Assembly (NCBI RefSeq): GCF_006345805.1
Contig: NC_043004.1
Span: 8,246,001-8,310,000 of the forward strand
Reading direction: 5' to 3'
From: Octopus sinensis
Taxonomy: Eukaryota
DNA: 64,000 nucleotides
The position numbers and the translations under genes are program-made. Numbering within the stretch: position 1 is the stretch's first letter; every line of letters begins with the position of its first letter. Under the pieces are notes generated by a model, which ran no database searches, was not told where the DNA came from, and saw only the letters and a list, made by a program, of their open reading frames with translations. Below are positions 9,332 to 35,574 of the stretch, in pieces.

Positions 9332-9340
9332 TTAATGAAT

Positions 9341-9922
9341 AATCTTTTCTACTCTAGGTACCAGTCCCGAAATTTTGGGGGAGGGGGCCAGTCGGTTAGA
9401 TCAACACCATTACGTAACTGGTACTTAATTTATCGATCTCAAAAGGATGAAAAGCAAAGTCGACATTGGTGGAATTTGAACTCAGAACGTAGCGGCAGAC
9501 GAAATACCTATTTCTTTACTACCCACAAGGGGCTACACACAGAGAGGGCAAACAACGACAGACAAACGGATTGAGTCGATTATATCGACCCCAATGCGTA
9601 ACTGGTACTTATTTAATCGACCCCGAAAGGATGAAAGGCAAAGTCGACCTCGGCGGAATTTGAACTAAGAACGTAGCGGCAGACGAAATACCTGTTTCTT
9701 TACTACCCACAAGGGGCTAAACACAGAGAGGACAAACAAGGACAGACAAATGGATTAAGTCGATTATATCGACCCCAGTGCGTAATTGGTGGTTAATTTA
9801 TCGACCCCGAAAGGATGAAAGGCAAAGTCGATCTCGGCGGAATTTGAACTCAGAACGTAAAGACAAACGAAATACGGCTACGCATTTTTCACGGCGTGCT
9901 AACGGTTCTGCCAGCTCACCCC
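9341..9922 (-). mobile_element. SINE family A trimer (head + three core modules)
   Basis: Three tandem copies of ggatgaaa(g)gcaaagtcga...ggaatttgaact.agaacgta at ~9445, ~9629 and ~9813, with a single head at ~9890-9922. Confidence 0.9.
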
Positions 9923-10569
9923 TTACGCCTGTAATGAATATTATAAACACACTGCCATAAGTTACATTTAGTTTTATTTATGTGATTCTCTTTTTCTTCG
10001 TCTCTTTCTTTATTTTCATAGTGCGAAGAACCAGCAAACAACACCGTAGAGCTGAAGGTCGATTTTCCACTGACGACATTTTGTTGCTCGATGAAATAAA
10101 TATTCGACACAAACTATTTGACAAGTCACCCATTTACTCAGCGCTTCTTGTAAGCAAATATAGGAAGTCCTAATACAAAAACAGATAAAATCACCGAGGG
10201 TGTTGTTGCTAGTCATGTTTTATATTAACAAAACAATCAATATTGTAAAATGAAAGCTCCTTCCTTCGCACTCTCTTGAAATGAATGAAAAATAAACAAG
10301 AAGAAATCATTGATTAATGTTTATCTTAATGTTAATCTGTTCATCTACTCAACAACTACAAAATGTGTTTCGAACAAAAAGAACGATGCATACATACACG
10401 CGTACATTTGTGTGTGTGTGTTCATACCATATGTATATATATATATATATATATATTCAGTTGAATATGGTACTTAAGTTAAAGGTACCAGAATTTAGTA
10501 TGGTATTATCCATATAATTCAAAACGGGGTGATTACAATCAAAATAAGCAACAAGGATATCCAGAGGTA

Positions 10570-10659
10570 ATGCAGTACAATCGTTTCATGCGACTCCATT
10601 TAATTGAACAATGCAAATATTACATCAGTTTTAAAATGTAGAGCAATCTTCAGCTGCAT
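10570..10659 (-). ncRNA. Type-I hammerhead-like motif with long stem II
   Basis: Minus strand: ATGCAG-CTGAAGA-[~59 nt]-GAAAC-GATT-GTA-CTGCAT. Stem I is a perfect 6 bp and the triplet is GUA. Confidence 0.65.
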
Positions 10660-10787
10660 AAAATTTACTACTATGATATTGTTGATGAAACATGTCCTTT
10701 GTCTATCTACTTATCCTCTTTGTGATTTTGGTTAATAGAATAACTATACAAATGAATCCTTTGAATTTAACTAAATTCTATGTTTTT

Positions 10788-10877
10788 ATGGAGCTGAAGA
10801 TTTCTCTACATTTTAAAACTGATGTAATATTTTCATTGTTCAATTAAATGGAGAAGCATGAAACAATCGTACTTCAT
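10788..10877 (+). ncRNA. Type-I hammerhead-like motif with long stem II
   Basis: ATGGAG-CTGAAGA-[59 nt]-GAAAC-AATC-GTA-CTTCAT. Stem I is 6 bp with one G-U pair. Confidence 0.65.
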
Positions 10878-11207
10878 TACAAAAATACATATGTATATAT
10901 ACACATGTATTGGAATTTTCTCTGATTTTTCAGATTTTTGTATGCTAGGCTATTGGTTTTAAATTGATATTAATTAAATTAATATCCAATTTATCTCCCT
11001 CATTATTTAAATGTTAAAATAAATATGTTCTCTAATATGCAGCATTAACTGCAGTAAATTATTTGCTGCAGTTTTTGTTTCCGGAATTTAGCGCGCCAGA
11101 ACTCAGACATTTGAAATTAACCCCAATGTAATAGTTAGAACTAAGTACGTATCTGTTTTATACAGAAAACCGGTGGTTAGTTTTACAAATTATATTGCTT
11201 TTGGAAC

Positions 11208-11684
11208 GATCGTACTGATGAGTCCTACGGACGAAGGATTACGTAAGTGATTTATTCGTTAATAGTCGAAACCGGTATACTCTTTACTCTCTCTTTTACT
11301 TGTTTCAGTCATTTGACTGCGGCCATGCTGGAGTACCGTCTTTAGTCGAGCAAATCGACCCCGGGACTTATTCTTTGTAAGCCCAGTACTTATTCTATCG
11401 GTCTCTTTTGCCGAACCGCTAAGTGACGGGGACGTAAGCACACCAGCATCGGTTGTCAAGCAATGCTAGGGGGACAAACACAGACACACAAACACACACA
11501 TATATATATATACATATATACGACAGGCTTCCTTCAGTTTCCGTCTACCAAATCCACCCACAAGGCATTGGTCGGCCCGGGGCTATAGCAGAAGACACTT
11601 GCCCAAGATGCCACGCAGTGGGACTGAACCCGGAACCATGTGGTTGGTTAGCAAGCTACTTACCACACAGCCACTCCTGCGATT
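11208..11684 (+). ncRNA. Type-I hammerhead ribozyme split by a SINE insertion (11208-11280 + 11681-11684)
   Basis: GATCGTA-CTGATGA-[stem II capped by GTAA tetraloop]-GAAA-CCG-GTA-TAC|SINE|GATT. Rejoining gives TACGATT, which pairs with GATCGTA. Confidence 0.75.
11281..11680 (-). mobile_element. tRNA-derived CORE-type SINE family B (octopus OR-like), near full length
   Basis: Reverse complement has a tRNA head (gcaggagtggctgtgtggtaag..ggttcagtcccactg), a CORE-like atcttgggcaagtg, an internal TA/TG repeat and an (AGAGTAA)n tail. Confidence 0.92.
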
Positions 11685-11993
11685 AATTCTTGATTTTTTA
11701 TATAATTTTCAACTGCCTTGCCCGCCTATTGTTCTGGTGTCCGCTGAATTTTCTCTAGAGAACATTCTGTCTTTGTAGTTTGATCGTGGGTGATCTATTT
11801 CTAGCATATGGCTGTCCACATCGTGGTTTTTAGCTCTTAAAATATACACATGTATTGGAATTTTCTCTGATTTTTCAGATTTTTGTATGCTAGGCTAATG
11901 GTTTTAAATTGATATTAATTAAATTAATATTCAATTTATCTCCCTCATTATTTATATGTATAGATATGTATGTATATATATATGTATGTATAC

Positions 11994-12134: not shown

Positions 12135-12368
12135 TACGGCGGTAAGCTGGCAGAAGCGTTAGCACGCCGGGCGAAATGTTTAGCGATATTTCGTCTGTCT
12201 TTACGTTCTGAGTTCAAATTCCGCCGAGGTCGACTTTGCCTTTCATCCTTTCGGGGTCGATAAATAAATTACCAGTTTCGTACTGGGGTTGATGTTATCG
12301 ACTTTATCTCTTTGTCTGTCCTTGTTTGTCCCCTCTATGTTTAGTCCCTTGTGGGTAGTAAAGAAATA
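12135..12368 (+). mobile_element. SINE family A
   Basis: Head, core and gtagtaaagaaata tail match the other copies. Confidence 0.9.
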
Positions 12369-12532
12369 TATATATAAGAGATAATGGTGTTACTGAGACC
12401 CAAAGGTGCCAGGTAATGCTGAATAAGTGCTATAGACAGACCATAGTTAAGTTCGGTAATTTTGCGAATAAGGGGTTCTTATATATATATATATATATGT
12501 ACATACACAACAAAAGTGAAAGAAAGCTAAAC

Positions 12533-13020
12533 TTCCTTAACATGTTTCAGCATACTTCTGCCTGGCGGCAAATTTTGTAATTCACCTTGATACGAATAAA
12601 AGCTCTCAGGGGGCGAGACGAACAGGATAAATATTCTTAAATTACATTTAAATTACATAGTTTCAGGTTTAACTTTCAAATTAAATAAACAAATTTTAAA
12701 ATAACTAATTTAATAAGTTTGACTTTCCACAGCGCTATCGCTTCATATTTACGAAGAAACATGAATAATTTTCTTTTTTTAAATGGCTGTGGACGAATAA
12801 GCTAATATTTAAAAATTATTCATGTTTCTTCGTAAATATGGAGCGATAGCGCTGTGGGAAGTCAAACTTATTAAATTTAAATTAAATTAATTATTTTAAA
12901 ATTGATTTATTTAATTTGAAAGTTAAACCTGAAACTATAGTATACTATTGACTCAGTAATTTTGAAATACTTATTCTGTTCGTCTCGTCCGCTGAGAGCT
13001 TTTATTCGTATCAAGGTGAA
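12533..13020. mobile_element. Foldback (arms 12581-12772 / 12812-13020) with degenerate hammerhead-like motif on the minus strand at 12533-12612
   Basis: The arms are reverse complements with indels. The minus strand reads CTGAGA-GC..GC-T-GAAACATGTT, a PLE-type palindromic stem III. Confidence 0.65.
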
Positions 13021-25945: not shown

Positions 25946-26337
25946 ACTCTCTTTACTCTTTTACTTGTTTCAGTCATTTGACTGTGGCCATGCTGGAGCA
26001 CCGCCTTTAGTCGAGCAAATTGACCCCAGGACTTATTCTTTGTAAGCCTAGTACTTATACTATCGGTCTCTTTTGCCGTACACGCTAAGTTACGTGGACG
26101 TAAACACACCAGCATCGGTTGTCAGGCGATGTTGTGGGGACAAACACAGACACCCCCCACACACATATATATATGCATACATATATACGACGGGCTTCTT
26201 TCAGTTTTCGTCTACCAAATCCACTCACAAGGCTTTGGTCAGCCCGCGGCTATAGCAGAAGACACTTTCCCAAGGTGCCACGCAGTGGGACTGAACCCGG
26301 AACCATGCGGTTCGTAAGCAAAGCTACTTACCACACA
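25946..26337 (-). mobile_element. SINE family B
   Basis: Colinear with 11281-11680. Confidence 0.92.
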
Positions 26338-33396: not shown

Positions 33397-33752
33397 TATA
33401 TATATATATATATATAACATGTATGTATGTATGTATGTAATGTATGTATGTGTATGTGTACTATTTTGATATTTTTCGTTTCGTAAAATGAATTTATTTA
33501 TATACATCTCTAGATTCATATAAATAAATTTCTACGTATTTACATATAACTTTGAGTAACCGGTTATCGTAATAGATGGAATGTATCGTATTAAATAGCA
33601 ATATAGTAGCTATTTAGGCACAAACACATATACACATACATACACACAGACGCAGAACACATGCACACACACGTCTCTCCTTCACTCTCTCCCATCCACG
33701 CATAGAAACATATACGGACATATATATATGCATACATAATACACACACACAC

Positions 33753-35007: not shown

Positions 35008-35486
35008 GGCGTAGGAGTGGCTGTGTGGTAAGCAGCTTGCTTACGAACCACATGGTTCCGGGTTCAGTCCCACTGCGTGACACCTTGGGCAAGTGCTTTC
35101 TACTATAGCCTCGGGCGGACCAAAGCCTTGTGAGTGAATATGGTAGACGGAAACTGAAAGAAGCCGTCGTATATATGTATATATATATTATATATAGATA
35201 TATATATATATATATATGTATATGTGGTGGTGTGTGTGTGTGGTGTGTGTTTTGTGTATTGGTTGTGTGTGTGTGTGTGTTGTGGTCTGTGTTTGTCCCC
35301 ACAACATCGCTTGATAACCGATGCTGTGTGTTTACGTCCGTAACTTAGCGGTTCGGCAAAAGAGACCGATAGAATAAGTACTAGGCTTACAAAGAATAAG
35401 TCCTGGGGGTCAATTTGCTTGACTAAAGGCGGTACTCAGCATGGCCACAGTCAAATGACTGAAACAAGTAAAAGAGTAAAAGAGTA
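35008..35486 (+). mobile_element. SINE family B, full length
   Basis: Head ggcgtaggagtggctgtgtggtaag, CORE-like accttgggcaagtg, TA/TG middle and (AAAAGAGT)n tail. Confidence 0.93.
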
Positions 35487-35574
35487 ATTTTGAGAATATA
35501 TATACATATGTAATGATTATCTTTTACATACATAAGTACCAGTAATTTCTATACAAGGGAAAAAGAAGAACGGT

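Follow-up and report, generated by a model that had tools for sequence, protein, structure and literature searches.

A SINE insertion at the predicted scissile bond of a type I hammerhead in a retrozyme-like repeat of Octopus sinensis

The closest described systems to the repeat considered here are the metazoan non-LTR retrozymes and the Penelope-type elements (PLEs). Retrozyme units are reported at 150-450 nt in the available parts of two accounts (PMC7229834; bioRxiv 10.64898/2026.07.22.740005). For PLEs, the role of the hammerhead in cells is an open question, and its cleavage is weak in vitro. In the sole reconstituted system, cleavage was dispensable (PMC11167929). Blunt joins with microhomology are a described product of TPRT in nested SINE insertions, as far as the available text of PMC2881922 goes. 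A single nested SINE insertion is ordinary in itself and matters only if its position is mechanistic.

The locus described here lies in a 64,000-nt stretch of Octopus sinensis DNA, the whole of which we call the window. In it, a near full-length SINE (SINE-A) interrupts a type I hammerhead, and comparison with related copies places it at the predicted scissile bond, at offset 0 or +1. The features of the locus are given below, with the cleavage position 11277/11278 predicted from the hammerhead consensus and the unit positions of the host repeat numbered from this predicted cut site.

10894-11277, forward strand: left part of the window copy of the repeat, unit 160-544, 92% to a natural tandem unit (L021)
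10897-11014, forward strand: left terminal direct repeat, 97.5% over 118 nt to 11842-11959
11208-11214, forward strand: stem I, 5' strand GATCGTA; across 60 copies, two-sided change affects 4 of its 7 pairs
11215-11221, forward strand: hammerhead core CTGATGA; the strict core pattern is passed by 142 copies
11222-11267, forward strand: long stem II closed by a GTAA loop, with a mismatch at T11266 that few other copies have
11268-11277, forward strand: GAAA core (11268-11271), palindromic stem III (ACCGGT) and H17; scissile bond predicted after 11277
11278-11677, reverse strand: SINE-A, near full length, tail at 11278 and head truncated; slidable by 1 nt to 11279-11678
11678-11681, forward strand: 4-nt microhomology TGCG, common to full SINE heads and the first bases after the predicted cut in empty sites of the TG clade (see below)
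11678-11684, forward strand: stem I, 3' strand TGCGATT, intact; predicted to pair with 11208-11214 with a probability of 0.55-0.70 in the interrupted allele
11678-11959, forward strand: right part of the window copy, unit 1-280, ending at a fixed 3' end of the family before a TA microsatellite
11842-11959, forward strand: right terminal repeat, 97.5% over 118 nt to 10897-11014

The repeat that hosts the hammerhead had been missed by the preliminary description of this DNA. The window copy (10894-11959) is about 1.2 units long with the hammerhead inside it, and the spacing of its terminal repeats (945) minus the 400-nt SINE equals one unit of 544 nt, the length seen in natural tandems at L003, L021, L209 and other loci. 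Deletion variants of 463-500 nt occur, and shortened tandem units of 463 to about 500 nt are seen in L026/L027, L271, L276 and L277. A DNA search of the genome (2.72 Gb) with the sequence left of the SINE returned 44 matches from the best 40 scored of 695 candidates, and 29 other loci found with this left part run colinearly into the sequence right of the SINE, which therefore interrupts a repeat. By exact pattern, one part of the repeat has at least 473 copies genome-wide and the stem I/core part has 150. Uninterrupted copies, the first thing that the preliminary description had proposed to look for, do exist and are colinear across the gap, with 83 exact copies of GAAACCGGT-N3-7-ATTAATTCTTG from the CCGG subfamilies found by a genome-wide pattern. 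At L209 (G000:C2 2,548,000-2,553,500), 8 units of 544 nt stand head to tail in an array, the majority having both an intact core and a longer CCGCCGG stem III. In the window, the repeat is directly preceded by a MITE-like long inverted repeat (10567-10880, 75%), and two others lie at 12591-13010 (79%) and 1914-2757 (96% over 379-nt arms).

No ORF or common flank is tied to the 544-nt unit in 101 loci, and no RT plus GIY-YIG ORF between pLTRs, the arrangement that marks an autonomous PLE, is linked to it in these loci. Short reading frames near repeat copies in L040 (540-941, reverse strand) and L006 (1040-1250, forward strand) resemble, by eye and without Pfam support, pieces of Penelope-type ORFs, and may point to a partner element. 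The 5' starts of 326 segments, taken from 256 loci, are scattered, and an excess of starts at the cut site, considered as a trace of cleavage, was rejected since a single segment begins there. The 3' ends of these segments form three clusters, at unit 171-180 (96), 271-300 (116) and 121-150 (43). Back-to-back pairs mostly join an end at 270-300 to an end at 115-182 (58 of 86), and none of the 86 joins two ends of the same fixed class. The repeat thus has the 5' truncation, inverted arms and fixed internal 3' ends of Penelope-style mobilisation, together with tandem non-coding units that each carry a hammerhead, as in retrozymes, at a unit length of 544 nt, outside the approximately 150-450 nt of that class. 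From these sequence features we file it as a non-coding, Penelope-style repeat that is retrozyme-like rather than a retrozyme proper, since its unit exceeds the reported lengths and its circular RNA is putative.

The interrupted hammerhead itself is real on comparative grounds, with the pairing of stems I, II and III kept across subfamilies beyond chance. The CUGANGA, GAAA and UH elements occur in order with stem I open, which is the type I arrangement, and the parts of the motif named by the preliminary description (GATCGTA at 11208-14, CTGATGA at 11215-21, stem II at 11222-67, GAAA at 11268-71 and CCG-GTA to 11277) were all verified. Its reading as a Penelope/retrozyme-type hammerhead with a palindromic stem III, here of 1 bp, that a SINE has broken is supported. 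We examined 60 of 132 distinct copies, chosen for an intact core and related to each other; pairing held in 90.6% of their cells, and slid controls gave 32-40%. Cells changed on both sides number 115 in these copies compared with 37 after shuffling, although the number of pairs with two-sided change (10) shows no excess over shuffles (9.9). In the 142 copies that pass the strict core pattern, stem III takes the forms CCG, CCGAG, CCGCCG and CCTAG, all of which favour intermolecular pairing over a hairpin by prediction, as is expected of dimer-active motifs in the available text of PMC4209133. ACCGGT gives a self-duplex of -10.3 kcal/mol with no hairpin predicted. Self-cleavage after UH is inferred from this sequence pattern. 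Rfam Hammerhead_1 matched one of four loci scanned, the uninterrupted copy L025, with 29.9 bits and an E of 0.00058, which falls short of the gathering score (34), and no match at gathering level occurs in the window. An inner register, CTGATGA-GTCC-TAC-GGAC-GAAG, was considered as a complete upstream hammerhead and set aside, since its hairpin and GAAG are not kept across subfamilies whereas the outer register covaries. More diverged relatives of the family's hammerhead with different stem II sequences were seen in L278 and L299 (about 1500). In L264 and L275 only the hammerhead region has been duplicated, in local tandem over about 55 and 95 nt, which brings two palindromic stem III halves close together.

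The window sequence confirms a 400-nt SINE, unit sequence resuming beyond it and the lack of a TSD. The preliminary description had further placed the SINE 3 nt downstream of the cleavage triplet, with TACGATT as the empty site, and here the related copies lead to a different position. The sequence allows the 400-nt insert to be placed at any of the offsets 0-3, of which 2-3 imply TACGATT and 0-1 imply TGCGATT, and TGCGATT is intact at 11678-84. The family was expected to continue TACGAT after GGTA; 99 of 216 copies do read TA there, but 101 read TG (two mis-anchored rows among the 216, L013 and L055, both read TG in colinear comparison). All ten of the copies nearest to the window copy read TG, as GGTA|TGCGATT, as do 18 of the nearest 20, and the window copy bears every one of the six diagnostic states linked to TG. 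A tree of 124 rows, from which the insertion site was omitted, nests it in a clade of 74 rows (support 99/93) that comprises 69 TG, 2 TA and 2 other. Given this membership of the TG clade, TAC at 11278-80 is mostly SINE tail, and the SINE adjoins the predicted bond 11277/11278 or stands 1 nt after it. Several tree neighbours read GGTT rather than GGTA; with a GGTT host state, A11277 would also be SINE-derived and the position would still hold within 1 nt. Two further features of the join had been missed. Relative to the ribozyme the SINE runs antisense, the GAGTA tail lying to the left, and its head, which lacks its first bases, is joined via the TGCG microhomology. Under the TG reading all host bases are kept, and the sequence is colinear and complete on both flanks. 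No second occurrence of the SINE/hammerhead junction was found genome-wide, so an amplified chimera is ruled out; none of the listed sequencing-run contigs over 10930-11465 bridges the junction, an observation that carries no weight.

Whether this insertion silenced an active ribozyme, as the preliminary description supposed, is unproven from the sequence. Prediction still pairs the 5' strand of stem I with 11678-84 across the insert, but H17 is now 400 nt away, and on this structural model self-cleavage at the interrupted bond would be lost. The window copy has no second hammerhead in cis and carries a private stem II mismatch (T11266) that had been overlooked, so its prior activity is uncertain. 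As a lone copy it was probably already a weak cleaver before the insertion, because a 1-bp stem III needs a partner that is absent in cis.

SINE-A has A/B box-like tRNA-type motifs in its head by eye, although ARAGORN gives no tRNA, and its tail repeats GAGTAAAA, with 49 exact tail tags in 0.83 Mb. Junctions could be parsed cleanly for 30 of 56 sampled tails, the other 26 being dropped, and among these unselected insertions the tail is preceded by TA in 18/30 and by GTA in 3/30. Other full-length SINE-A copies have no TSD in 5/10 cases and only TA-repeat matches in the other five, so the lack of a TSD at the window insertion is normal for SINE-A, whereas a second SINE family has TSDs of 15-22 bp in 3/3. 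Private divergence is similar for the SINE (5/327 nt) and the host copy (8-10/412 nt), and dating therefore leaves simultaneous and later insertion unseparated. Two more SINE-A copies stand at 25949-26337 and 35010-35487 of the window, which also holds a partial tandem of the second SINE family (9339-9931) and a SINE copy with a TSD at 12138 (12138-12373). In L083 (about 500-1400), a 55-nt repeat piece spanning the cut site lies between two SINE-A copies, one antisense and head-truncated and the other sense and 5'-truncated, possibly an inversion with a captured hammerhead piece.

In the 544-nt family, the 113,570 nt of sampled unit that serve as background contain three internal insertions in total: the window SINE, a sense SINE in L089 and, at unit 174, a tandem piece of retro-like sequence. 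The L089 insertion (G000:C8748, about 33,460-33,730) is of the second SINE family and interrupts the hammerhead of that copy; its TSD, a standard one of 21-22 bp, spans the cut site, and neither nick falls at the bond. A genome-wide gap pattern with 11 matches found SINEs only at the window and L089, a second gap search gave no matches across about 430 intact copies, and a third gave 10 matches across about 360 intact copies with the window as the sole insertion, both copy numbers being estimated by sampling. Chance accounts for 8/11 and 4/10 of the matches, and the rest, the SINE cases apart, are local duplications or shortened tandems. For SINE-A at the exact site, roughly 0.01-0.06 events are expected even with a 6-fold TA preference, a figure to be read in light of the case having been selected.

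The genome-wide enrichment of SINEs next to hammerheads that the preliminary description had suggested looking for does appear in a second hammerhead family, F2, though gap searches of the 544-nt family gave no second case. A genome search for any hammerhead core followed by an antisense SINE-A tail returned 32 matches, 15 with SINE-A. F2, which has a 4-bp stem I and an ATCGAT palindrome in stem III, gave 424 anchor matches against 14 for a control, and 69 of 71 sampled were real; we count at least 424 copies. A genome-wide search of F2, covering the antisense orientation of SINE-A, found 14 matches, which reduce to 9 internal events after two duplicated pairs were merged and two matches at a terminal microsatellite and one degenerate copy were set aside. 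Four of these events lie at +4/+5 from the predicted cut (L313, L315, L320 and L317/L318, at locus position about 1500), with different head joins and with F2 resuming in three; the others lie at about +48 (two), -20, about +12 and +27, which leaves offset 0 without an event among the nine. From the background of 49 tags per 0.83 Mb, 0.025 events are expected at a 2-nt site and 1.4 over 110 nt, so four independent +4/+5 insertions in 424 F2 copies stand against an expectation of 0.025. Among 69 unselected F2 copies there was no colinear insertion in either orientation (1.5 antisense expected). A short target motif of six bases or fewer is an unlikely cause of the cluster, as it would have to occur in about 3 of 30 background flanks and is seen in none (p about 0.03), and a longer motif is possible. 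With duplications of 0-4 nt and varied head joins, the F2 insertions have the anatomy of TPRT. On these sequence comparisons SINE-A is probably biased toward DNA just 3' of hammerhead motifs, and hammerhead sites may attract it.

Another kind of join was seen in F2. Seven of the 69 unselected copies (L325, L330, L340, L391, L370, L377 and L371) are short pieces that begin 9-28 nt ahead of the anchor, end 4-17 nt past the predicted cut and run straight into SINE sequence. Their partners are the same approximately 50-nt sense LINE/SINE-tail-like 3' piece in four, a sense SINE-A head in two and an antisense 5' part in one. These chimeras fall into at least two subfamilies and are candidates for recurrent template switches or for a hammerhead-headed SINE. 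In L309 (about 1020-1060, G000:C10998), a hammerhead-like sequence has an antisense SINE-A tail possibly flush with its GTC triplet. L309, L305 and L300, all hammerhead-like with SINE-A nearby, have no relatives among the sampled loci.

The mechanisms weighed here, TPRT and RtcB chemistry, and the hammerhead numbering are taken from the cited papers together with established knowledge. We think it likely that the junction arose by an ordinary DNA-level, target-primed insertion into an already integrated copy of the repeat, a reading we favour because of the usual TA target, the lack of a TSD, the head microhomology, the colinear host and the unique junction. A LINE endonuclease would nick the strand of ribozyme sense just after GGTA or GGTAT. 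The TA end would prime on the GAGTA tail of the SINE, and the cDNA would extend almost to the SINE 5' end and join by the TGCG microhomology of 4 nt. No host sequence would be lost, and a TSD would be absent or 1 nt long. The exact site would likely be owed to the TA preference of SINE-A, probably helped by the bias for DNA 3' of hammerheads. The low expectation at the exact site and an F2 cluster unexplained by a motif of six bases or fewer weigh against so ordinary an origin, and the similar private divergence of SINE and host gives no sign of the later insertion that it implies. Moreover, antisense orientation and a bond-flush tail are also predicted if the 3' end of the cleaved RNA, its cyclic phosphate removed, served as primer for reverse transcription of SINE RNA while the repeat was itself being retrotransposed. 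In that case the reverse transcriptase would run off the monomer 5' end, anneal the SINE cDNA by the 4-nt microhomology and continue upstream, with repeat and SINE inserted in one event. This would also predict the intact TGCGATT, microhomology at the first four post-cut bases, no TSD and similar ages of SINE and host, and the sense F2-SINE/LINE-like chimeras in 7/69 copies suggest that such RNAs may meet on the reverse transcriptase. We nevertheless hold priming by the cut RNA to be decidedly unlikely. It has no second case among about 360-430 copies of the 544-nt family, no F2 insertion among the nine at its predicted offset, no clustering of 5' starts where the cut would fall and, besides candidate L309, only the window case flush with the cut among the 15 SINE-A matches of the core-plus-tail search; hammerhead cleavage was also dispensable for transposition in the one PLE tested in vitro (available text of PMC11167929).

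The preliminary description had left it between chance and an RNA-level join or template switch to explain the closeness of the SINE to the bond. Pure coincidence, at one of 120 TA sites in the unit and with the F2 cluster as a separate long sequence-specific hot spot, we regard as unlikely. The site does belong to the main target class of SINE-A, F2 does have a second repeated site at about +48 (two events), the F2 offset of +4/+5 differs from the 0/+1 seen here and the window case was picked for being striking; yet two unrelated hammerhead families share the same SINE on the same strand within 5 nt of the predicted cut, and both SINEs among the three internal insertions in 113.6 kb overlap the site region (1/2 with the index case removed, p about 0.11). 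The antisense cluster in F2 thus leans toward a non-random position, while the 544-nt family supplies no second case. As for a join between RNAs, RtcB-type ligation of an antisense SINE RNA between the cleavage products, followed by reverse transcription, is very improbable. Both product ends are intact under the TG reading, and tRNA ligase circularises retrozyme RNA in vitro (available text of PMC7229834), but ligation would require antisense SINE RNA with cuts at the two natural ends of the SINE, offers no prediction of the 4-nt head microhomology and has no other insert of any kind at the site in two gap searches. The antisense orientation and the microhomology therefore disfavour ligation, and a template switch is without a second example in the family. 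Beyond the single event, it is doubtful, though worth stating, that hammerhead cleavage sites direct antisense retro-insertion in general, at the bond or shortly past it, with the cut RNA end, or an R-loop or fold that it forms on genomic copies, giving the primer or nick from which a LINE enzyme would write SINE cDNA. Were that so, retrozymes would be SINE traps and the window locus a frozen record of priming by a ribozyme product; insertions that mark the bond would be in-genome evidence of cleavage, with the ends entering reverse transcription. The F2 cluster makes this mechanistic question countable from existing genome data. A literature search, conducted without supplements and most subscription journals, found no paper on SINE insertion at hammerhead cleavage sites.

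Set beside the described systems, in the available parts of the papers cited, the 544-nt repeat resembles metazoan non-LTR retrozymes in its non-coding, AT-rich, head-to-tail units with a type I hammerhead each (PMC7229834; bioRxiv 10.64898/2026.07.22.740005) and in having dispersed monomers, dimers and an array of eight (L209). Its weak stem III capped by a palindrome is also like that of axolotl retrozyme motifs that cleave as dimers. Unlike retrozymes, its unit is 544 nt and most copies are of 0.3-1.5 units with inverted arms; its self-cleavage is predicted and its circular RNA putative. With the pLTR hammerheads of PLEs it shares a large stem II, a basal bulge, G10.1-C11.1 and a palindromic stem III (PMC4209133, PMC8557442, PMC11167929), although its stem I has 7 bp compared with 4-5 in minimal PLE motifs (PMC4209133). 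Its 5' truncation, inverted 5' arms, fixed internal 3' ends and TA-rich flanks are likewise those of PLEs (PMC8557442, PMC11167929), but unlike in PLEs no ORF is linked to any copy examined. The SINE, for its part, has its tail at the first nick, a slight 5' truncation, head microhomology and a blunt join, as do nested TPRT insertions of SINEs in the available text of PMC2881922, and departs from them in hitting the predicted scissile bond of a ribozyme and in the +4/+5 clustering of the same SINE in F2.
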